A stretch of 60,048 bases of DNA from NCBI GenBank assembly GCA_043742785.1, contig JAYTXU010000019.1, forward strand, positions 1-60,048, read 5' to 3'. This document shows, one piece after another, positions 1,371-34,004 of the stretch. The notes under the pieces are model-generated. The model worked only from the letters and a program-made list of their open reading frames with translations, searched no databases and was not told where the DNA came from. The position numbers were made by a program, and so were the translations under genes. Each line of letters opens with the position of its first letter. Position 1 is the stretch's first letter. Origin of the DNA: Candidatus Omnitrophota bacterium. Lineage in GTDB: Bacteria; Omnitrophota; Gorgyraeia; Zapsychrales; Fredricksoniimonadaceae.

Positions 1371-3098
1371 TCAATTAATAACAATAGTACCCAAAATTTC
1401 ATCAACACTTGTTAAACCCTCTTCAACTTTTTTCATACCCGCTTCAAACAAAGTGTCCATACCATTCTTACGGGCAACATCTTTAATGTCTTCATAGCCA
1501 GCATTCTTTGATAATAAGGCACGCATTTGATCATTAATCACCATAACCTCGGCGACAACCATTCTTCCTCTATAGCCCGTGTGAGAACATTCATCACACC
1601 CTTTGGAACGATAAATTAAATCACCTTTAACTTTATAATCCCCAACAATCAAACCACTAGACTCATAAGGTTCTTTGCATTTCATACAAAGCTTCCTCAC
1701 CAAACGCTGTCCAATAACTATGCTGAGTGATGGTGGCAACAAATAATAGGGAACTCCAATATCTGTCAATCGAGTAATAGCAGATGCAGCATCATTCGTA
1801 TGAAGGGTGCTTAAAACCATATGTCCCGTCAAAGCAGCACGAACACAAATTTGAGCCGTATCTAGATCACGAACTTCACCCACTAAAATAATATCCGGAT
1901 CTTGCCTTAAAAAAGCTCTTAGCGCTGAAGCAAAAGTCAATCCAATATCAGGACGAACAGCTACTTGATTAACTCCATCAATTTTAAATTCTACAGGATC
2001 TTCAACAGTAATAATATTTTTGGTTGTGTCTTTTGTTTCACTAAGAGCCGCATACAGCGTAGTTGATTTTCCACTTCCTGTTGGACCTGTAACAAAAAAT
2101 AATCCATGGGAAGCTTCCAGCGCTTTACGAATAGTCGTTAACTGTTTAGTATCAAAACCTAAGGAAGCTAAATCTAACTTAACAGATCCTTTATCTAAAA
2201 TACGCATAACAACTTTTTCACCCCAAACAGTAGGTATTGTTGAAACGCGTAAATCTACAGATCTATCTTCAAGCTTGGCTGAAATATTCCCATCTTGAGG
2301 TAAACGTTTTTCAGCAATATCCAAATTAGCTAAAATCTTAACACGTGAAATAATCGCAAGCTGCAAATGCGAAGCTGGTGGAGGAATTTGATATAAAATA
2401 CCATCAATGCGGTAACGAATTTCTAACTTTTCCTTAAACGGTTCAATATGAATATCACTAGCCTTCTCATCAATAGCCTGACGAATAATTAAATCCACTA
2501 ATTTTATAACCGGAGCATCTTCTGCTTTCGCAACAAGACGATCAATACTTAATTCTGCTTCTAAATTCTGATCATATTGAGTGTACTCTTTTTTCTCTAA
2601 GACTTGACTTTGGGCATAAGACTTTTCCACCTCCCTATCAAGCATAGAATTCCCGCTCTTACTTGAATAAAACTCATTAATAGCCAAATTCAAGTCGGAC
2701 CTTGTTGCAATAATCAAACTCAACTCACAATTCGTAAGTTGTTTTAAATTATCCAACATAATGAAATCTAAAGGATCAAAAACAGCACATGTTAAAGAAT
2801 ACGCATTTTTAACTAAAGGCAAAACAATATTTCTTTTAGCAAATTCAAAAGGAATAAGTTTGTCTAACTCTTGATCATCACGAGGCTTCATAAGTTCTGC
2901 ACGATGAGATGCGTAAGGAAACATCAACTGCGTACCTAAAGCAGAGGCCAAATCACTTTCAGAAATCATTCCAAGTTTCAGAAAAACTTCCCCAATGCGC
3001 TCTTTATTCACCTTCTGCGCATCAATCGCTTGATGCAATTGAACTTCAGTAATTAAACCCTGCTTAATAAGAATTTCACCAAGTCTTTGGTGTATCAT
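1371..3098 (-). CDS. pilB: Pilus assembly ATPase (PilB/GspE family) with N-terminal MshEN domain
   Basis: ASDIHIEP, RLPQDG, Walker A GPTGSGKSTT, 'LRQDPDIILVGEVRD', His box 'STLHTND', tetracysteine motif (CMKC...CDEC); two MshEN repeats at aa 5-57. Confidence 0.95.
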   Translation of the reverse strand: MIHQRLGEILIKQGLITEVQLHQAIDAQKVNKERIGEVFLKLGMISESDLASALGTQLMFPYASHRAELMKPRDDQELDKLIPFEFAKRNIVLPLVKNAYSLTCAVFDPLDFIMLDNLKQLTNCELSLIIATRSDLNLAINEFYSSKSGNSMLDREVEKSYAQSQVLEKKEYTQYDQNLEAELSIDRLVAKAEDAPVIKLVDLIIRQAIDEKASDIHIEPFKEKLEIRYRIDGILYQIPPPASHLQLAIISRVKILANLDIAEKRLPQDGNISAKLEDRSVDLRVSTIPTVWGEKVVMRILDKGSVKLDLASLGFDTKQLTTIRKALEASHGLFFVTGPTGSGKSTTLYAALSETKDTTKNIITVEDPVEFKIDGVNQVAVRPDIGLTFASALRAFLRQDPDIILVGEVRDLDTAQICVRAALTGHMVLSTLHTNDAASAITRLTDIGVPYYLLPPSLSIVIGQRLVRKLCMKCKEPYESSGLIVGDYKVKGDLIYRSKGCDECSHTGYRGRMVVAEVMVINDQMRALLSKNAGYEDIKDVARKNGMDTLFEAGMKKVEEGLTSVDEILGTIVIN

Positions 3099-3101
3099 TA
3101 A

Positions 3102-4529
3102 TTATTTACCTATTTCCGTAGAATCAAGTTGTTGATTAACACTATCCAATCTTTTTGGCTTACTAAACTCACGATTAAATCGCACAATATTCGCACTATC
3201 AAAATCTTGTTTCAATTTATCATTGATAATGTTAGTGGTAATAAAAATAACCAACTCTCTTTCCGTAGATTCTTTCGCTTTATGACGAAAAGCTGCTCCT
3301 ATAATAGGAATATCACCTAAAAAAGGAACATTGGTAATACCTATACTGTTTTGAGTACGCAAAAGCCCGCCTATCATGAACGTCTCCCCATTCTTAACTT
3401 TCAAAATAGATTTAGTAGATCGCTCTTCCGGATCCTTAAATGCCTGACCATTAGAAGGGTTAATGATTGACCCTGGAGAAGCTACAATAACTTTAGGATT
3501 AACCGATAATATAATTTCTCCTGTAATAATATTAGCCTGTGGAGTTACTTCTAGCGTTACCCCTGTCTTTGTTCTTTCTGCTCCTGTAGAGGATGTCGAT
3601 CCGCTCGTTCCAACGCTCGTTTGAGATGCAGAAAGACCAATGGCTTCATCCGTCGATATTTCAATAGTGGCTGTTTGATTATTGAGCGTCAATATTCTTG
3701 GTCTTGCTAAAATTCGTGAATCAGATTGAGATTTTAAGAAATCTAAAGCAGCTGCCACACTTGTTGCGTAACTTAATGTACCTGGTGCAGTGTCAGAGGA
3801 ACTATTTCTATAAAGCAACCCGCTTTTACTCCCCGTAACAGATAGATTAGGAAAGTTACCATAAGACATTCCCAACTTATCTGTAACGCTTTTGTTGACA
3901 TCTATCATTTCTACCTGGATTAGGATTTGCGCAACGTCAACATCCAACTTAGTAATTGTTTCTGCAATTAAAGGAAATTGTTCTGGGATATCTGTAATAA
4001 TGAGACTATTAGTTCTGCTATCTTCCTCCATCTTCCCATCCGTAGATAAAACCTGCTTAATAGCTGCAAGCACTCCTGACTTTGAGGAATCAGAACTTAT
4101 TTTTGAAGTAGTAACGGATGCATTTTTCAAAACAAAAACTTTTGTAACCCTGTTCTGTTCTTTAGACTTAGGCTTTACAACAAATACGTCGCTATTAGAA
4201 TCCATTTCATAAGTTAGATCGTTAACATCCAGGATCTTTTCTAAAGCCTCATCAATAGAAACATTATCAAGAAACACTGTCACTTTTTTTGATGACACAT
4301 CTGCTGCTGATATGAAATTCTTTCCTGATTGTTTTGAAAAAATCTTTAATACATCAATTAATGACGCATCTTTAAAATCCATTGATATTTTTTTAGAATA
4401 ATCGGCATAGATAAAACGACTTTCAATATCCTCCAGCGGAGCTGACCAAGCCTGCTTACCGGACAGACATATCAAGAAGGCTAAGATTAGCCTAGCGCCC
4501 AATAACAAGACTCTTCGATTTAAAATCAT
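3102..4529 (-). CDS. pilQ: Secretin (PilQ/GspD family) with STN and secretin-N domains
   Basis: 'ISMDFKDASLIDVLKIFS' (STN), 'DSRTNSLII', 'ARPRILTLNNQTATI', 'VPFLGDIPIIGAAFR', 'ELVIFIT'. Start set at ATG 4529, which has a GGAG SD. Confidence 0.9.
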   Translation of the reverse strand: MILNRRVLLLGARLILAFLICLSGKQAWSAPLEDIESRFIYADYSKKISMDFKDASLIDVLKIFSKQSGKNFISAADVSSKKVTVFLDNVSIDEALEKILDVNDLTYEMDSNSDVFVVKPKSKEQNRVTKVFVLKNASVTTSKISSDSSKSGVLAAIKQVLSTDGKMEEDSRTNSLIITDIPEQFPLIAETITKLDVDVAQILIQVEMIDVNKSVTDKLGMSYGNFPNLSVTGSKSGLLYRNSSSDTAPGTLSYATSVAAALDFLKSQSDSRILARPRILTLNNQTATIEISTDEAIGLSASQTSVGTSGSTSSTGAERTKTGVTLEVTPQANIITGEIILSVNPKVIVASPGSIINPSNGQAFKDPEERSTKSILKVKNGETFMIGGLLRTQNSIGITNVPFLGDIPIIGAAFRHKAKESTERELVIFITTNIINDKLKQDFDSANIVRFNREFSKPKRLDSVNQQLDSTEIGK

Positions 4530-21388: not shown

Positions 21389-22645
21389 TTATTTTATAAA
21401 TTTTGGAACCTTTTCCCCACGCATTAAATCTTTAAAAGACTCTCTTTCTTTCACAACTTCAAACTTGTTTCCACGAACCATCACTTCCGGCACACGGCCT
21501 CGAACATTATAATTGCTAGCCATCACATATCCATAGGCGCCAGCACTCATAATTGCTAATAGATCTTCTTGGCCCACCTTAGGTAGAAGACGATCATGCG
21601 CAAAAAAATCTCCGCTTTCGCAAATAGGACCTACCACATCAACCTTGATTTTAACTGCCTTGGTTGCCTTGACTGGCACAATTTCGTGATAGGCATCGTA
21701 TAACATCGGACGGATCAAATCATTCATCCCGCCATCCACAATGACAAATTTCTTAACACCGTTATCTTTCACATAAAGAACCTTGGTCACAAAAATTCCT
21801 GCATTGCCGACGATAAAACGGCCTGGTTCCATAATGATCTTTAAACCTGTCTTCTCTAAGATAGGCAATACTTTATCCGCATAGCTTTGTGCAGTTTGAG
21901 GATTCTCATCCTTATAAATAATGCCTAAGCCGCCTCCAATATCAAGATATTCAATCTTCACACCTTCGGTACGCAATTCATCAATAAACGCTACCACCTT
22001 CTTTAATGCTCCAACAAATGGCGCACCTTCAGTAATTTGAGAACCAATATGAATATGCACCCCATTCACATTTACATTAGGATATTTCTTTTGAGACTTA
22101 AAAATCTGCTTGGTTGTTCTTAGATCAATCCCAAACTTCTTCTTCAGGGAACCCGTATGAATATAATTATGCGTTGGTGCGGGTACATCCGGATTAATAC
22201 GTAACGCTGCCTGAACCTGTCTTTTCATCTTCTTAGCAATACGATTGATCTCAACTAATTCCGGTTCGCTTTCCACATTAAAAAGTAGAATCCCTGTCTT
22301 GATAGCAAAAGAAATTTCTTCATCAGTCTTACCAACAGACGCAAAGACAATTTTCTTTGGGTTCGCTCCAGCAATCAAAGCTTTCTTTAACTCACCAACT
22401 GAAACAACATCGATTCCTGCGCCTAAATCGATAAGACTTTTAACAATAGCTAAATTACCATTGGCCTTCATGGCAAAACAAATCATCGGATTAACCTTAG
22501 CAAAAGCTTTCTGTAGCTTTAAGAAATGATCGGTCAACGTCTTATAGCTATAAAGATAAAATGGTGTGCCGACATCCTTCGCAACCGCTGATATCTTTAC
22601 ATTCTCACAATAAAGCTCTTTATTTTGAAAATGAAAATCATGCAT
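21389..22645 (-). CDS. lysA: Diaminopimelate decarboxylase
   Basis: 'FAMKAN', 'H..IGSQ', 'LDIGGG', 'EPGRFIV', 'VVGPICESGD', 'GAYG..MASNYN'. Confidence 0.98.
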   Translation of the reverse strand: MHDFHFQNKELYCENVKISAVAKDVGTPFYLYSYKTLTDHFLKLQKAFAKVNPMICFAMKANGNLAIVKSLIDLGAGIDVVSVGELKKALIAGANPKKIVFASVGKTDEEISFAIKTGILLFNVESEPELVEINRIAKKMKRQVQAALRINPDVPAPTHNYIHTGSLKKKFGIDLRTTKQIFKSQKKYPNVNVNGVHIHIGSQITEGAPFVGALKKVVAFIDELRTEGVKIEYLDIGGGLGIIYKDENPQTAQSYADKVLPILEKTGLKIIMEPGRFIVGNAGIFVTKVLYVKDNGVKKFVIVDGGMNDLIRPMLYDAYHEIVPVKATKAVKIKVDVVGPICESGDFFAHDRLLPKVGQEDLLAIMSAGAYGYVMASNYNVRGRVPEVMVRGNKFEVVKERESFKDLMRGEKVPKFIK

Positions 22646-24014: not shown

Positions 24015-24017
24015 AAT

Positions 24018-24380
24018 TTATCCTTTATTCAAATAAAAATAAGATAAAGAGTTAATCACAATCACAGCAACAAGAATAAACATAGAAAACATCACTTGAA
24101 CAGATAAGAAATTCTGATCTTTAAATCTATGAATAAATTTCTTAGCAGAAAACCATCCCCCTACAAGAGGTATAAATATATATTCTATCGACCAAATAAA
24201 ATACGAAATAAAAGATTTTACTAATAAGTAACATGAATACTCATTAGTCATTTCAAAACTGGAATAATATCGATCTGAATGATCCGTTAACATCCACATT
24301 AAATAAACAAATAACCAAATAAAATAAGAAACAATTACATACTTCTTAAGAATATTCCCAATATCGGATTTCGAACCCAT
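24018..24380 (-). CDS. AT-rich orphan membrane protein (about 3 TM)
   Basis: Three hydrophobic stretches; no recognised motif. Confidence 0.5.
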   Translation of the reverse strand: MGSKSDIGNILKKYVIVSYFIWLFVYLMWMLTDHSDRYYSSFEMTNEYSCYLLVKSFISYFIWSIEYIFIPLVGGWFSAKKFIHRFKDQNFLSVQVMFSMFILVAVIVINSLSYFYLNKG

Positions 24381-24479
24381 TGATTTCCATAAAATTCATA
24401 CAAAAAACATGGGCATTATAAAAATAACAAGAAATGTTACAGTAGTCTTAATTGGATGCATTAACTACGCCTTAAAAGT

Positions 24480-24507
24480 TTAATACCGCATTCCCAAAAT
24501 ACGAATA
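24480..24507 (-). repeat. Diverged duplicate of the argG 3' end
   Basis: 26/28 identical to 25071-25098; reads IRILGMRY* versus IRIWGMPY* in argG. Confidence 0.9.
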
Positions 24508-24509
24508 GC

Positions 24510-24758
24510 CTACGCTGCCTGCAATACGGAAAACCTAGCTTTAAGCGGTATTCTTTGCGCTTTGGAATTCGTAAAATGCTCTGTAAAATCCACAATAGTA
24601 AAACCAAGCACTTCTTTTGTCTTTAGGTCTCGGCGGACAATCACTCCATCATCCATCAGTTCCCCAATAGTTTCTCGAGGTTTGCCTTCCGTAATATAAA
24701 GAACGTCTGCTTCCTTATCATACGAAACGGTTAACTGATCAATTTTTTGTTTAGCCAT
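24510..24758 (-). CDS. DUF2283 family protein (putative antitoxin)
   Basis: 'SYDKEADVLYI', 'DGVIVRRD...EVLGFTI'. Confidence 0.85.
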   Translation of the reverse strand: MAKQKIDQLTVSYDKEADVLYITEGKPRETIGELMDDGVIVRRDLKTKEVLGFTIVDFTEHFTNSKAQRIPLKARFSVLQAA

Positions 24759-25045
24759 ATTATCTTACCTCCTCTGACCGAGTCACTAATAAAAGCTGTC
24801 TTAATACGGTTATCTCTTAAAGAAACAACAACGACCTTATATAAGTTATTTCTAAGATCTTTATGATAAATCCATCGATCATGCTTAGATTTGTCCTCTA
24901 CAATCGCAAACGGATCTAAAAGAGTGTCTTTGATGAAATCAACCGGATCTTTAATACAGTGCTCACGCCGGATATGCTCATACCCTGTTGGAGATAACAC
25001 AAACGAACGGCCATCTTTATCTTTGAATTGTATAGATTTAGTCAT
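24731..25045 (-). CDS. Small putative RelE/BECR-fold nuclease toxin paired with DUF2283
   Basis: 'YEHIRREH', 'DTLLDPFAI', 'VVVV...RIKTAF'; overlaps the DUF2283 start. Confidence 0.5.
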   Translation of the reverse strand: MTKSIQFKDKDGRSFVLSPTGYEHIRREHCIKDPVDFIKDTLLDPFAIVEDKSKHDRWIYHKDLRNNLYKVVVVSLRDNRIKTAFISDSVRGGKIIWLNKKLIS

Positions 25046-25070
25046 AACTACAAATCTTATTCACTCTCAG

Positions 25071-26234
25071 TTAATACGGCATTCCCCAAATACGAATAAA
25101 TCCTTCAGATAATCTTGGATCAAAAATATCTTTAGCGCCATAGGTGGCTAACTCTTCCTTGTAACGAGAAAAAGGAGATTTGCGGCCAACGACACTACAA
25201 CTTCCCTTAAATAATTTCATACGGACAACACCGCTAACACGTTTCTGTGTTTCATTAACAAATGCGTCAAGTTGTTGCTTTAAAGGCGTTTCCCATAACC
25301 CGTAATAAGTTAATTCCGCATATCGAGGTGAAATCAATTCCTTATAATGCAATGTCTCACGATCTAAAACCATTGCTTCTAATTCTTTGTGCGAAGTTAT
25401 CAAAATCGTCCCGGCTGGGTTTTCATATATTTCACGAGATTTAATACCCACCAATCGATTCTCCACCATATCCACACGGCCAACACCATTGCGTCCGCCT
25501 AATTCATTAAGTTTCTGAATCAATTCAACAGGTTTATACGTCTTACCATTAACCTTAACTGGGATACCTTTGGAATATTCAATCTCCACATACTCAGGCT
25601 TATTGGGACATTCTAAAGGATTCTTGGTCATCAAATAAATTTCTTCTGGTGGCTCAACCCAAGGGTCTTCCAAGATACCGCATTCAATGGAACGACCATA
25701 AAGATTAATATCCGTCGAATATGGACTCTTCTTTGTAACGTCGATTGGGATCTTATGCTTTTTGGCATAATCAATTTCCTGATCCCTAGTTTTAAATTCC
25801 CAAGTACGAAGTGGCGCTTGTAGTTCTAAATGTGGAGCTAAAATCTTAGCTGTTACTTCAAAACGGACCTGATCATTCCCCTTCCCCGTACAACCATGAG
25901 AAATTACATCCGCTTTTTCTTTTTTCGCCACGGCAACCTGATGCTTGGCAATTAAAGGACGTGATAAAGCCGTCGCTAAGAAATACTTGCCTTCATAAAC
26001 GGCATTAGCTTTAATAGCTGGAAAAACATAATCTTTTACAAACTCTTCCTTCAGATCCAAAATATAGACCTTCGATGCTCCCGTTGCTAATGCACGCTTT
26101 TCAATAATTTTAAAATCACTACCTTGGCCAACATCCGCCATAAAAGCAATCACTTCATACCCCTTATCCTTGTACCAACGGATTAAACAGCTCGTATCTA
26201 ATCCTCCCGAATATGCTAAAACGACCTTTTTCAT
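25071..26234 (-). CDS. argG: Argininosuccinate synthase
   Basis: 'VVLAYSGGLDTS', 'ALSRPLI', 'HGCTGKGNDQVRF', 'ENRLVGIKSREIYE'; true start ATG 26234 with GGAGG SD. Confidence 0.98.
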   Translation of the reverse strand: MKKVVLAYSGGLDTSCLIRWYKDKGYEVIAFMADVGQGSDFKIIEKRALATGASKVYILDLKEEFVKDYVFPAIKANAVYEGKYFLATALSRPLIAKHQVAVAKKEKADVISHGCTGKGNDQVRFEVTAKILAPHLELQAPLRTWEFKTRDQEIDYAKKHKIPIDVTKKSPYSTDINLYGRSIECGILEDPWVEPPEEIYLMTKNPLECPNKPEYVEIEYSKGIPVKVNGKTYKPVELIQKLNELGGRNGVGRVDMVENRLVGIKSREIYENPAGTILITSHKELEAMVLDRETLHYKELISPRYAELTYYGLWETPLKQQLDAFVNETQKRVSGVVRMKLFKGSCSVVGRKSPFSRYKEELATYGAKDIFDPRLSEGFIRIWGMPY

Positions 26235-26246
26235 TGATTCCTCCAT

Positions 26247-26299
26247 GTACGGGCAGGCCCCTGTGCCTGCCCTAGGCGGCCACAGGGGGCCGCCCCTAC
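26247..26299 (-). repeat. GTAG-tagged REP doublet between argF and argG
   Basis: GTAGGGGCGGCCCCCTGTGGCCGCC-TA-GGGCAGGCACAGGGGCCTGCCCGTAC; the TAG within GTAG is the argF stop. Confidence 0.85.
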
Positions 26300-27216
26300 G
26301 ATAATAAATATAACAACACGGCTTTTTGCGCATGCAGACGATTCTCTGCCTGATCAAATATAATCGAATGCTTCCCGTCAATAACATCTTCGGTGACTTC
26401 CAATCCTCGATGCGCTGGCAGGCAATGCATGAATTTATAGTTCTTATCAGCTAATTTTGTTAAGCTCGAATTAATCTGATAACCTTCAAATTCTTTAATA
26501 CGCTTCTTACTCTCTTCTTCCTGCCCCATACTCACCCAGACGTCAGCATAGATCACATGCGCGCCTTTAACTGCACTCTTTGGATCACGGCCTACCTCAA
26601 TTGTGACCTTATTAGCTTTGGCAACCGCTTGAGCTTCTTTAAAAATAGCAGGATTAGGATCATATCCTTTGGGTCCAGCAAAACGCACATTCATACCTAC
26701 CTTCACACAAGCCACCATCAGCGAATGAAAAACATTATTACCATCACCAACATACGCAACCGTCAATCCCTTAAATTTACCAAAATGTTCACGAATCGTT
26801 TGAATATCAGCCAGAGCCTGACAAGGATGATACAAATCACAAAGAGCATTAATCACCGGCACGTCCGCATGCTTGGCTAACTCGACCAAATCCTTATTAT
26901 CAAAAACACGGGCAACGATGCAATGCACGTAACGTGACAATGTCTTAGCCACATCATGGGTACTTTCACGCTCGCCTAAACTAATTTCACGAGGGCCAAG
27001 ATAAAGACTGTGCCCTCCCAATTGATGCACACCAACGGAGAAAGAAACACGAGTCCGATTAGAAGGTTTTTGAAATAATAATGCCACCGACTTACCTTTT
27101 AAATCAGCTCGAATCTTTCCTTTTTGTTTTTTAAGTTTATCCGCTGAATCCATCAAAGCTAAAATTTCAGCGTTAGAATAATCTAATAATCGAATTAAAT
27201 CTCGTTTCATATTCAT
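26296..27216 (-). CDS. argF: Ornithine carbamoyltransferase
   Basis: 'KPSNRTRVSF', 'HPCQALAD', 'YVGDGNNV', 'DVWVSMG', 'HCLPAHRG', 'QAENR'; start at ATG 27216 or 27210. Confidence 0.97.
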   Translation of the reverse strand: MNMKRDLIRLLDYSNAEILALMDSADKLKKQKGKIRADLKGKSVALLFQKPSNRTRVSFSVGVHQLGGHSLYLGPREISLGERESTHDVAKTLSRYVHCIVARVFDNKDLVELAKHADVPVINALCDLYHPCQALADIQTIREHFGKFKGLTVAYVGDGNNVFHSLMVACVKVGMNVRFAGPKGYDPNPAIFKEAQAVAKANKVTIEVGRDPKSAVKGAHVIYADVWVSMGQEEESKKRIKEFEGYQINSSLTKLADKNYKFMHCLPAHRGLEVTEDVIDGKHSIIFDQAENRLHAQKAVLLYLLS

Positions 27217-27218
27217 TT

Positions 27219-27312
27219 TGTCATGCCCGTGAAAACGGGCATCCATAACAGAATTAATTCTGCTTTAGATTCCCGCCCTGCCTACCGGCAGGCAGGTTTC
27301 GCGGGAATGACA
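27219..27312. repeat. TGTCA palindromic dimer with a nested CCTGCC...GGCAGG element
   Basis: Left unit 27219-27245; right unit 27266-27312 interrupted at 27277-27296 by CCTGCCTACCGGCAGGCAGG. Confidence 0.85.
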
Positions 27313-28502
27313 TTCTCCTTGTTATAAATTTTTTTAAACGCTTTATCTAAAATAAAAATAGCCTTATTAATTTGTCGACGGTTCACATTTAAAGCCGGCA
27401 TAATACGAAGCACATTGCCCTGCGTGCAATTGATAATCAAACCATGTTCAAAACATTCCTTAAAAATATCAGTTCCTTCCACCGTCAACTCAACCCCAAT
27501 CATAAGCCCAAGACCACGCACTTCTTTAATGATAGGATATTTATTTTTTAACTCGTTAAGTTTTTCAATTAAATAAGGCCCCAAAGACTTCACATTAGAT
27601 AAAATCTTATCACTATAAATCGCTTTAATAACACCAATCGCTGCCTTACAAACCAAAGGACTTCCGGCAAAAGTTGAACCATGCATCCCGGGTTTTAATA
27701 CATCCGCCATTTCTTTCTTAACAATCATAGCCCCAATAGGCAATCCACCACCTAAAGCTTTAGCTAAACACATAATATCAGGCGTTATCCCATAATGTTT
27801 ATAACAAAACATCTCGCCGGTTCGCGCCATACCCGTCTGGACTTCATCGATGATGAGAAGAATCTTCTTCTGATCACAAATCTTGCGAACTGCCTGCACG
27901 TATTCTTTAGAAGCTATATTAATTCCACCTTCGCCCTGAATCAGTTCAATCATGATGGCAACAGTCTTGTCACTCAGAACAGATTCGATTGCTTTAATAT
28001 CATTAAAAGGTACTGTTTTAAATCCAGGTAAAAGAGGCGCAAAACCTTGTTTGTGCTTAAGCTGTCCTGTGGCTGACAAAGCCCCCATGGTCCTTCCATG
28101 AAAGGAATTATCCGTCGTTATAATCTCAAAACGCGAGCCGTTCCCGTAAGCACGAGCAAACTTAATTGCTGCTTCATTGGCTTCAGTTCCGCTGTTGCAA
28201 AAAAATATTTTTCCAGGAAAAGAAATGCGGATCAATTCCTTAGCTAACTTGGCTTGAATAGGATTATACAAATTATTAGGCACATGAATAAGTTTGCTAA
28301 TTTGCTCACGTACAGCTCCCATTACCTTTGGATGACAATGACCAAGATTACTCACTCCCCAGCCAGGGAAAAAGTCTAAATATTTTTTACCGTGAATATC
28401 CGTCAAGAGGGAGCCCTTGCCCTTAACAAAAATCGCAGGCATACGCGTATAAGTCGCTAAAATATTTTCATTATATGAATTTAAGATATCTTCTTGTGTC
28501 AT
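27282..28502 (-). CDS. argD: Acetylornithine aminotransferase
   Basis: 'FFCNSGTEANEAA', 'FHGRT', 'DEVQTG', 'AKALGGG.P', 'HGSTFAG'; the C-terminal VIPAKPACR* is repeat-derived. Confidence 0.96.
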   Translation of the reverse strand: MTQEDILNSYNENILATYTRMPAIFVKGKGSLLTDIHGKKYLDFFPGWGVSNLGHCHPKVMGAVREQISKLIHVPNNLYNPIQAKLAKELIRISFPGKIFFCNSGTEANEAAIKFARAYGNGSRFEIITTDNSFHGRTMGALSATGQLKHKQGFAPLLPGFKTVPFNDIKAIESVLSDKTVAIMIELIQGEGGINIASKEYVQAVRKICDQKKILLIIDEVQTGMARTGEMFCYKHYGITPDIMCLAKALGGGLPIGAMIVKKEMADVLKPGMHGSTFAGSPLVCKAAIGVIKAIYSDKILSNVKSLGPYLIEKLNELKNKYPIIKEVRGLGLMIGVELTVEGTDIFKECFEHGLIINCTQGNVLRIMPALNVNRRQINKAIFILDKAFKKIYNKENVIPAKPACR

Positions 28503-28516
28503 AGTGTTTTCCAAAT

Positions 28517-32175: not shown

Positions 32176-32604
32176 TTAAACTTCTAAAACTATTGGCTTC
32201 TGAGCTGCATGAGGATGTTTATCATCTGCATAAACCCTTAATTTACCTTTTTGCTTATATCCTAAAGCACCGTTTGGAATCATACGGGTAACAGCAAGTT
32301 CAATCACAGTGGTTGGGCTTTTAGCTAACATATCTCCCAAAACAACTGTCCTATAACCGCTAGGATAACCAGTATAACGATCTTGAATTTTATCAGTCAA
32401 TTTCTTACCAGTCACACGCACTTTAGAAGCATTGATAATCACCACCGTATCACCACAATCAAAGAAAGGTGTATACGTGCGTTTATGTTTGCCGCGCAAA
32501 ATAGTAGCTGCTTTGGTTGCGATACGCCCTAAAACCTTATCCGTAGCATCGATAAGATAACATTTTGTTTCAAGTTCATCAACTTTAGGTAGAAATGTTT
32601 TCAT
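32176..32604 (-). CDS. rplM: 50S ribosomal protein L13
   Basis: 'IDA..KVLGRIA', 'LRGKHK..YTP..DCGD.V.IINA', 'HPHAAQKP'. Confidence 0.99.
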   Translation of the reverse strand: MKTFLPKVDELETKCYLIDATDKVLGRIATKAATILRGKHKRTYTPFFDCGDTVVIINASKVRVTGKKLTDKIQDRYTGYPSGYRTVVLGDMLAKSPTTVIELAVTRMIPNGALGYKQKGKLRVYADDKHPHAAQKPIVLEV

Positions 32605-32671
32605 GACTGACTGCCTTTAAAATATTTTAATAAGCTTATGCCTTCAACTCTGGCAAATTTAAGAATGTTAA

Positions 32672-32699
32672 AATATAGCATTTTTCGAAATAATGTCAA
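32672..32699 (-). promoter_or_regulatory. rplM-rpsI promoter
   Basis: TTGACA, N16, TATATT with an upstream TG. Confidence 0.65.
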
Positions 32700-32723
32700 T
32701 ATTTTATTTCCACAATCATTGAT

Positions 32724-34004
32724 CTATACAAACTCACCTTTTAAACACAATCCATCAATGCTTTGAAGCTTGACCGGGATAATTTGATTCATAAAATCTC
32801 CTGAAGCTTTAACCTTAACCCGTACATAATTATCCGTTAAGCCAATTTGAAAATCTTCTTTAACGTCTTCTATGAGAATCGTCTGCGTCGTCCCTAAAAG
32901 AGATTCATAAAACATGCGGCGTTTACGGGCTGATAATTCATGCAGAATCTGACTGCGTTGAGTTATAACTGAAGATTTCACCGCATCACCACGCATACGG
33001 CTTTTGGCCATATGCCGCTCAGAATAACTAAACACATGCACATAATCGATAGGCTCTTCCCTAATAAGATCCATTGTTTCATCAAAATGTTTGTCTGTCT
33101 CTCCTGGAAAACCTACAATCACATCCGTTCCGATACAAATTTGCGAGACCTTCCTATCAGCATCACGAATAAAATTAATAAATCCAGACCTGCTGTATTT
33201 ACGTTTCATTTCAACGAGAACATCATCCGAACCGCTTTGCAAAGGGATATGCAGATAGCGACACAATTTCCCATGCCCCATATAATCAAACAACTCTCTT
33301 GGTATAGTAGTTGGTTCAATTGAAGAAATACGAATACGCTTTAATTCTTCCACCTCTTGCATCTTGGTAATCACATCCAATAAAGACTTTCCTTCATTAG
33401 CATAGGTGCCAATATTGATGCCTGTTAAGACAATCTCTTTGTGTCCAGCTGCAGCTAAAGCTCTTACTTCCAGGAGAACATCTTCAAACACACGGCTTCG
33501 CGCCCGACCACGAGCGTAAGGAATTTCACAAAAAGAACAAAAGAAATCGCAGCCATCTTGAATTTTAATATTGGCTCTTTTATGTTTATCGTAATCAATA
33601 GAAGCTATGGGCTGTGTAAAGGGCTCACGTTCAATAGTAGGCGTCACCACTGTTGGGGCAATTGGATTAGGATATTCATTAAAAACAGCCACTAGATCCA
33701 TTTTGCGACTGTTCCCCACAATCCAACGCACATTAGGTAATACCGAAAGTAATTCTTTCTGCACCTGTGCCTGACATCCGATCAAAGCAATACGTGCCAG
33801 AGGATTTTGACGATTCACCTTGTTAACCAAACGACGAGTATCAGCATCTCCACCTTCGGTCACTGTACAAGTATTAATGACCACAATATCGGAAAGCTTA
33901 TCAAAATCAACGACCGTATAGCCATTGGCTTCAAAAGAGTTTTGAATCGATGCCGTCTCGCTTTGATTCAAACGGCAACCTAAAGTATAAAATGATATTT
34001 TCAT
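32724..34004 (-). CDS. mtaB: tRNA t6A methylthiotransferase (radical SAM)
   Basis: 'TLGCRLNQSE', 'INTCTVT', CxxxCxxC 'QDGCDFFCSFC', 'LQSGSD', 'IVGFPGET', 'TDNY'. Confidence 0.9.
   Translation of the reverse strand: MKISFYTLGCRLNQSETASIQNSFEANGYTVVDFDKLSDIVVINTCTVTEGGDADTRRLVNKVNRQNPLARIALIGCQAQVQKELLSVLPNVRWIVGNSRKMDLVAVFNEYPNPIAPTVVTPTIEREPFTQPIASIDYDKHKRANIKIQDGCDFFCSFCEIPYARGRARSRVFEDVLLEVRALAAAGHKEIVLTGINIGTYANEGKSLLDVITKMQEVEELKRIRISSIEPTTIPRELFDYMGHGKLCRYLHIPLQSGSDDVLVEMKRKYSRSGFINFIRDADRKVSQICIGTDVIVGFPGETDKHFDETMDLIREEPIDYVHVFSYSERHMAKSRMRGDAVKSSVITQRSQILHELSARKRRMFYESLLGTTQTILIEDVKEDFQIGLTDNYVRVKVKASGDFMNQIIPVKLQSIDGLCLKGEFV

Follow-up and report, generated by a model that had tools for sequence, protein, structure and literature searches.

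The window analyzed here is a 60,048-nucleotide (nt) stretch, contig JAYTXU010000019.1 of assembly GCA_043742785.1, from a Candidatus Omnitrophota bacterium of the family Fredricksoniimonadaceae. At the 3' end of its argG gene it contains a two-gene putative toxin-antitoxin module flanked by two copies of the last codons of argG. We favor the reading that this module was inserted at the argG stop codon without a recombinase, with a long and variable target duplication of the last 28 to 35 nt of the gene. We put its probability at about 0.6. The genome that holds the window (G000) is a 1.9-Mb assembly and is 82% complete. The features at the insertion are as follows.

25071 to 26234, minus strand: argG, argininosuccinate synthase, 387 amino acids, intact (Pfam Arginosuc_synth, E = 1e-68; Arginosuc_syn_C, E = 2e-90)
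25071 to 25098, minus strand: proximal repeat copy (T), the functional end of argG (last 8 codons and stop), encoding the native conserved C terminus
25046 to 25070, minus strand: leader of 25 nt from the argG stop to the toxin start, without a promoter of its own
24731 to 25045, minus strand: putative toxin, 104 amino acids, PBECR2-like (Barnase/EndoU/RelE-like nuclease superfamily; PF18810, E = 4.8e-5, below the gathering score)
24510 to 24758, minus strand: putative antitoxin, 82 amino acids, DUF2283 (PF10049, 24.4 bits against a cutoff of 23)
24480 to 24507, minus strand: distal repeat copy (T), a spare argG end that reads IRILGMRY* and matches the proximal copy at 26 of 28 bases

The 3' end of argG reads ATT CGT ATT TGG GGA ATG CCG TAT TAA (25098 to 25071). 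The distal copy reads ATT CGT ATT TTG GGA ATG CGG TAT TAA (24507 to 24480). Both mismatches are nonsynonymous (W to L and P to R), and the distal copy is therefore the nonfunctional one; it is noncoding. The ArgG protein is 88 to 94% identical to that of relatives, and its C terminus (...GFIRIWGMPY*) is conserved. A direct-repeat search ranked the 28-nt pair, whose copies are spaced 591 nt apart, first in the region. A scan of the window that allowed up to three mismatches found exactly two copies of the 28-mer, compared with no second copy in any of 100 shuffles. The same two copies, and no third, were found in the 1.9-Mb assembly. With a 2-nt deletion allowed in the distal copy, the repeat could be as long as about 35 nt (AAGG...TATTAA).

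The insert between the copies is 563 nt long. It contains the leader and two small, adjacent, co-oriented open reading frames (ORFs) that overlap by 28 nt. The DUF2283 ORF stops at TAG, and the distal repeat begins 2 nt (GC) later. Neither ORF is an integrase or transposase, and the 60-kb contig has zero matches to PF00589. A sequence-only reading of the window had described the argG-end copy 2 nt past the DUF2283 stop, with only a putative nuclease toxin and DUF2283 between the copies and no integrase or transposase. The sequence and the repeat search agree with it on both counts. The leader holds no promoter-like site on the minus strand. The cassette lies in the same orientation as the arg operon, and read-through from argG probably accounts for its transcription.

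Most of about 40 genomes of the family have argH 8 to 35 nt after argG, for example, GGAGACCT-ATG. Some have REP (repetitive extragenic palindromic) or hairpin elements of 60 to 220 nt in the gap. These gaps are the empty sites, each with a single argG end. The comparison is across species at about 80% nucleotide identity, with none within one species. In a pattern scan of 63 genomes of the family, argG was duplicated at its end in just three, G000, G006, and G007, all members of one genus.

The two other genomes carry different cargo. G006 has VapB and PIN (VapC) genes at argG, followed 3 nt later by a spare end, ...ATTTTGGGAATGCCGTATTAA. G007 has a weak PIN-like gene and an unnamed small ORF of about 63 to 74 amino acids, followed by the spare end AAGGCTTTATTCGGATTTGGGGCATGCTGTATTAA. 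This spare end is identical to the argG end of the same genome at 32 of 35 positions, and it shares the unusual CTG codon of that genome; the repeat is about 35 nt. The distal copy in G006 runs on into a REP-like element and a GIY-YIG gene, both of which directly follow the native argG end in G012. These contexts fit a distal copy that is probably the displaced original argG end, although the REP element may have arrived on its own. The sequence-only reading was that recombination in the final codons of argG let in a minimal cassette. This view gains support from the empty sites, from the G006 and G007 duplicates, and from a decayed copy of the same insertion on a metagenome contig (L116). The framing of the cassette as an integrative element held in part. 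The displaced end downstream fits the context in G006 and G012, and the analogy with integrase-borne elements does not fit the unrelated duplicates of 25, 42, and 83 nt found elsewhere. No relative with the cassette at argG and without the duplicate was found, an arrangement that the sequence-only reading had named as contrary to it.

Small genes also arrive at the argG-argH junction without a duplicate, and the junction is a hotspot for them. A DUF5674 gene and a conserved partner of about 105 amino acids are present there in four genomes from three genera (L007, L130, L132, and L137). A GIY-YIG nuclease gene occupies the junction in three genomes (L012, L126, and L006) and is broken in G006. 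One genome (L129) has a HicB-like gene. REP-like elements resembling those found elsewhere in the window operon occupy many argG-argH gaps in relatives.

L116 has the same cassette beside argG in another organism, an occurrence that the sequence-only reading had proposed to look for. It contains argG (93.6% amino acid identity), a decayed cassette, a decayed duplicate (TTATCCGTATTTTTGGGAAATATTTTGA), 75 nt, and argH. A 295-nt internal deletion in the cassette joins toxin codon ~61 to antitoxin codon ~52. Part of the 75-nt stretch that precedes argH there is homologous to what follows the duplicate in the window. The window and L116 align without a break at about 82% nucleotide identity from argG, across the junction, and into the toxin gene. 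On this alignment, the insertion looks old rather than recent and seems to have been passed down together with argG. All three recorded contigs with an identical ArgG have the window arrangement. One of them, an independent assembly, is 100% identical over 7.2 kb, so the arrangement is not an assembly artifact. G000, G006, and L116 are about equally related (82 to 83% argG nucleotide identity). The argG tree does not separate G000, G006, L116, G004, and G005, and one event is indistinguishable from several. A recombination-tract test along argG, which asked whether the proximal end was imported, gave no usable signal; the species are about 80% identical and silent sites are saturated.

Relatives of the cassette (78 to 88% amino acid identity) were found in at least 10 other Omnitrophota contexts. 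In addition to L114 and L025, described below, the placements include the following.

L024: cassette after metH
L115: cassette after radA
L106 to L108: cassette after a HEPN/MNT-like pair and before kdsB
L109, L110, and L112: cassette after a gene for a 150-amino-acid protein
L151: cassette before hom/thrC
L150 (JGI Ga0494960_00000849), 2290 to 4520: cassette in a diversity-generating retroelement locus (formylglycine-generating enzyme-sulfatase targets, bAvd)
L152, the same region as L210 (IMG/VR UViG_3300006733_000028): cassette on a predicted viral contig

Three of these copies have repeats of their own. L114 has an exact 42-nt repeat of the glmU start, and its insert is AGAA, the two genes, and AAA. 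Both of the two contigs with the GlmU of L114 carry the cassette, with no empty allele. In L025, the repeat is exact, 83 nt long, and located in the 3' part of a gene for an 846-amino-acid protein. That gene has a new tail past the proximal copy. Past the distal copy its frame reads ...GKSER*, presumably the displaced original tail. An empty site for L025 was not found, as the gene is absent at the DNA level from 30 relatives. L150 has a 25-nt repeat (24 of 25 identical) with a third copy, in the order DUF4160 pair, cassette, and Phd/PIN pair, which makes a T-A-T-B-T array. The repeat is GGGACACAC(AC)TTAATTCATCAG, and its three copies lie at 2293 to 2315, 2873 to 2900, and 3570 to 3597. The first copy seems to lie inside the 5' part of a disrupted reverse transcriptase-like frame.

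Homology among the cassette copies runs from about the toxin start codon to the last antitoxin codons; leaders and C termini differ. The flanks diverge completely at these two points, so the cassette has ragged ends that are not conserved. The 25-nt leader in the window is not homologous to the leaders of other copies, some of which have a TTGACA/TATAAT-like promoter of their own. In L024 and L025, a ATTTGGGG motif precedes the cassette. It was considered as a traveling argG-like remnant, a possibility that was rejected because the leader alignment shows no conserved left arm. The copy in L152/L210 is diverged (65% amino acid identity), has its own promoter-like site, and lies on a 38-kb predicted viral contig. 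Its neighbors are a DUF1353 gene and an N6/N4 DNA methyltransferase gene. This contig could be a vehicle for spread.

The two genes were always found as a pair, which is conserved in at least 10 contexts. The small family of the window toxin appears to be limited to Omnitrophota. A PBECR2 match of the same weak kind was found in 29 of its 31 members, and His24, His29, His61, and Lys82-Thr83 are invariant. The AlphaFold (AF2) model of the toxin is confident, with a pLDDT (predicted local distance difference test) score of 90.8. A fold search with this model against the PDB gave no significant match to a solved structure. Its best BFVD matches were to domains of phage large polyvalent proteins and were weak (E ~6e-3). 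Such proteins are the setting in which PBECR domains were defined. In three decayed copies the toxin is broken, by a premature stop in L114, by frameshifts in L115, and by an internal deletion in L025, and the antitoxin is intact in all three. Decay of the toxin first, with the antitoxin kept, is as expected of a toxin-antitoxin pair. By its family matches, the PBECR2-like and DUF2283 pair is a putative toxin-antitoxin module with a predicted toxicity.

In the mechanism that we favor, a selfish PBECR2-like/DUF2283 module would enter exactly at the argG stop, and the last 28 to 35 bases of the gene would be duplicated. The proximal copy would keep argG intact, and the distal copy would be the displaced original end. 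We infer that entry is a rare host-mediated event that makes T-cassette-T. Candidates for this event are illegitimate or microhomology-mediated joining, template switching, and a single crossover that integrates a T-carrying circle. At the right junctions in argG, the cassette end and argG have AAGG or AGG in common. Recombination between flanking repeats would be expected to delete such an insert. A cell that lost an addiction module would be killed, and the insert may be retained in this way. Once in place, the cassette may be inherited, transferred between relatives by homologous recombination in argG and argH, which are conserved on either side of it, replaced, or lost to decay.

Several observations weigh against this reading. 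Ku-dependent classical end joining is an unlikely route, as Ku was found in one of eight genomes of the genus and in none of G000, G006, and G007, which are incomplete assemblies. The 28-nt repeat (about 35 nt with the indel) falls just under the >30-bp criterion of the restriction-modification cases discussed below. Its right edge is the exact argG stop in three genomes with different cargo, and its left edge is near AAGG for two cargo types at argG. This is more regular than expected of random illegitimate events and may point to one old duplication between whose copies cargo was later exchanged, or to a preferred site. A TGG-to-TTG change is common to the distal copies in G000, L116, and G006, which may likewise indicate that these copies share an ancestor. 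Should the insertion be older than the divergence of G000 and L116, the distal copy of G000, with 2 changes in 28 bases, has decayed less than expected under neutrality; such high identity could be due to gene conversion, constraint, or a later transfer. No empty allele is on record, and the three contigs with an identical ArgG or toxin are all filled. The family assignment of the toxin is weak, with a PBECR2 match below the cutoff and a toxicity that is predicted only.

Two rivals survive best, and we consider both unlikely. The first is that the cassettes are nonautonomous and depend for movement on a tyrosine or serine recombinase that is encoded elsewhere and acts in trans, in the manner of satellites or CIMEs (cis-mobilizable elements). 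The argG end would be attB, and the copies would be attL and attR. The constant repeat edges across cargos at argG (right edge at TAA, left edge near AAGG) would suit such an enzyme, and G000 encodes about ten tyrosine recombinases elsewhere. None is on the 60-kb contig, however, and the 82%-complete genome has no third copy of the argG site. A recombinase specific for one att core is unlikely because copies of the same family are flanked by unrelated repeats (28 to 35 nt of the argG end, 42 nt of the glmU start, 83 nt internal to a gene, and 25 nt) and have ragged ends. A dif/Xer-like or integron core-site reading of the 28-mer was also rejected; no convincing dyad or GTTRRRY core was seen by eye.

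The second, about as improbable but keeping some weight, is that a small tandem duplication of the argG end arose first, in an ancestor of G000, G006, and L116, and that cassettes landed or were swapped later at the hotspot. The shared TGG-to-TTG change and the poorly separated tree favor this order of events, as does a junction that also accepts the DUF5674 pair, GIY-YIG and HicB-like genes, and REP hairpins. Against it, no examined genome has the duplicate without a cassette, and the cassette reaches within 2 to 5 nt of the distal copy in G000, G006, and G007. The G007 distal copy has that genome's own CTG codon and so arose or was converted separately. Moreover, insertions of the same cassette at unrelated genes have fresh duplicates that are exact, and an earlier duplication at those genes would have to be coincidental.

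More doubtful still is that a larger island or prophage with an integrase once integrated in the argG 3' end and that all of it but the cassette was later deleted. Integration in a 3' end with regeneration of the gene end is classical, and toxin-antitoxin modules resist deletion. The diverged cassette copy on the predicted viral contig is in keeping with this origin, and so is a classical island in the same genome. That region (contig C34, 27971 to 33250) resembles an integrase-borne island: it has two exact 58-nt copies of a tRNA 3' half 5.2 kb apart and a tyrosine recombinase gene at 32550 to 33020, in contrast to the argG cassette. A trimmed-down island is unlikely, however, because the fresh exact-repeat events in L114 and L025 already hold only the pair. 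Three different islands would have to be trimmed flush, leaving 25 to 90 nt on the left and 2 to 5 nt on the right, and targets differ among copies of the same cassette. A chance match or assembly artifact, for which only the short length of 28 nt speaks, can be dismissed given the shuffles, the independent assembly, and the orthologous decayed version in L116; the sequence-only reading had also judged a chance match very unlikely.

The recombinase-free insertion that we favor has its closest counterpart in restriction-modification systems. Long target duplication by restriction-modification gene complexes was reportedly described by Nobusato et al. in 2000 (Gene 259:99). Restriction-modification genes are inserted with variable repeats of >30 bp, often across start or stop codons and with no mobility gene (Furuta, Abe, and Kobayashi 2010, NAR 38:2428; PMC2853133). 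A 2013 review from the same school gives long target duplication for restriction-modification systems only (PMC3874152). The argG case resembles these in that an addiction-type unit lies between direct repeats of a sequence that is single copy at the empty site of relatives. In both, the repeats are variable, genome unique, and often at a start or stop, so that the target gene survives, and the insert has no mobility gene. It differs in that the cargo is a type II-like toxin-antitoxin pair rather than a restriction-modification system and in that three cargos occur at one argG end. The window repeat is also 28 to 35 nt, compared with >30 bp, and the empty site is cross-species only. The sister events of the cassette family have repeats of 42 and 83 nt, both exact, and of 25 nt. 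Our literature search was limited and found no paper on long target duplication for toxin-antitoxin cassettes; others may exist.

Other known systems fit less closely. Insertion in a 3' end with regeneration is typified by e14 and phage 21 in icd and by ICESt1/ICESt3 and their CIME derivatives in fda of Streptococcus thermophilus. As in the window, the working end lies beside the insert, the displaced end lies at the far side, and the repeats are a few tens of bases long. Those elements carry or depend on a tyrosine integrase and one fixed att core, whereas the window insert has no integrase. The flanking repeats of the cassette insertions are unrelated and share no conserved att core. No integrase or cognate element with the same att was found in the insert or on the contig, and no third site was found in the 82%-complete genome.

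Integron gene cassettes, toxin-antitoxin ones included, are present in chromosomal integrons (PMC13108822). They resemble the argG cassette in being promoterless, of one or two genes, co-oriented, and arranged in arrays parted by repeats (as in L150 and in a G000 contig, C67). Unlike them, it has no attC-type imperfect palindrome, attI, or nearby intI, and its repeats are pieces of the host target gene. The repeat search found no inverted repeat next to the cassette end, and no recombinase is nearby. Campbell-type insertion-duplication and homology-facilitated illegitimate recombination take place in naturally transformable bacteria, as seen with laboratory constructs and in transformation experiments. 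These also need no dedicated recombinase and double a homologous segment around the insert. They differ in that the first gain of a target piece by the cassette is left unexplained. To our knowledge, they have not been described as a natural route for toxin-antitoxin cassettes.

Similar arrangements were found beyond the cassette family. On G000 contig C74 (1875 to 3065), the last 34 nt of a gene for a 148-amino-acid protein (1875 to 2321) recur at 3030 to 3063 with 33 of 34 identical. The insert is a single ORF6N-like gene of 187 amino acids (2428 to 2991), and the displaced end reads ...EPEINGSK*. We fetched 120 loci from many phyla for relatives of DUF2283 and of the PIN-like protein of G007. 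Direct repeats of at least 20 nt flank 37 of these 120 DUF2283 or PIN-like cassette loci, compared with 7 of 300 random places in G000; the raw counts exaggerate the difference, as some of the matches are REP elements or tRNA ends. In a matched control with the window shifted in the same loci, repeats were found in 15 of 75 real positions and in 5 of 75 and 3 of 75 shifted ones. Gene-start or gene-end duplicates include L104 (113 nt, vsr start), L091 (63 nt, mreB-like end), and L089 (68 nt, gene start).

On G000 contig C67 (2100 to 8600, plus strand), six copies of a 60- to 90-nt repeat start at 2119, 3211, 4434, 4897, 6245, and 8459. They read M..KKIFLETYG(C/W)(Q/P)..ALPTDFS* and resemble the decayed first ~20 codons of a MiaB/RimO-type gene. 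The repeats separate small cassettes: a DUF4160-like pair, an AbrB-like and Fic/Doc-like pair, lipoproteins, and others. This contig may be a multi-insertion array of the T-A-T-B-T form. An intact gene with the repeat as its start was not found in the 82%-complete genome.

As a tentative generalization, less probable than our reading of argG itself, small addiction cassettes, toxin-antitoxin pairs as well as restriction-modification units, may be a class of recombinase-free mobile DNA. They would enter at gene starts or ends with a host-made, variable target duplication of tens of bases. They would be held by postsegregational killing, could form integron-like T-A-T-B-T arrays through further insertions into one duplicated segment, and could swap cargo at hotspots. 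Examples would be L150, possibly C67, and the three different cargos at argG.

The remaining features around the insertion are as follows.

27282 to 28514, minus strand: argD, arginine operon gene
26296 to 27246, minus strand: argF, arginine operon gene
24015 to 24479, minus strand: AT-rich filler of 465 nt from the spare end to argH (GC content 0.26 to 0.29), absent from L116
22638 to 24014, minus strand: argH, argininosuccinate lyase (Pfam Lyase_1, ASL_C2)
21389 to 22645, minus strand: lysA, in the same gene run as argD, argF, argG, and argH

The filler is a separate and later insertion than the cassette. It contains an orphan, membrane-like ORF of 120 amino acids (24018 to 24380, minus strand), which is perhaps spurious. 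This ORF has zero homologues among 5.8 billion proteins and is missing from the orthologous locus in L116. GC-rich palindromic REP-like elements are present at the argF/argG (26240 to 26310) and argD/argF (27250 to 27300) junctions; the operon is otherwise AT rich.

Most chromosomal toxin-antitoxin modules have no visible vehicle for their spread. The argG locus provides a natural series: an empty site, an intact insert with its duplicate, a copy in which both are decayed, other cargos at the same site, and fresh exact duplicates elsewhere. On these comparisons, the footprint known from restriction-modification systems appears to extend to toxin-antitoxin pairs in an uncultured phylum. Beyond that footprint, the locus adds a hotspot with three cargos, an orthologous decayed copy, and fresh sister insertions at other genes. 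The series suggests that any repeat-flanked insertion may be rare and soon lost and that only addictive cargo persists long enough to be seen. If this is true, addiction modules could load beside essential genes without an enzyme of their own. It would then bear on the annotation of genomic islands, on models of genome stability, and on how hotspots of defense and toxin-antitoxin genes are read.

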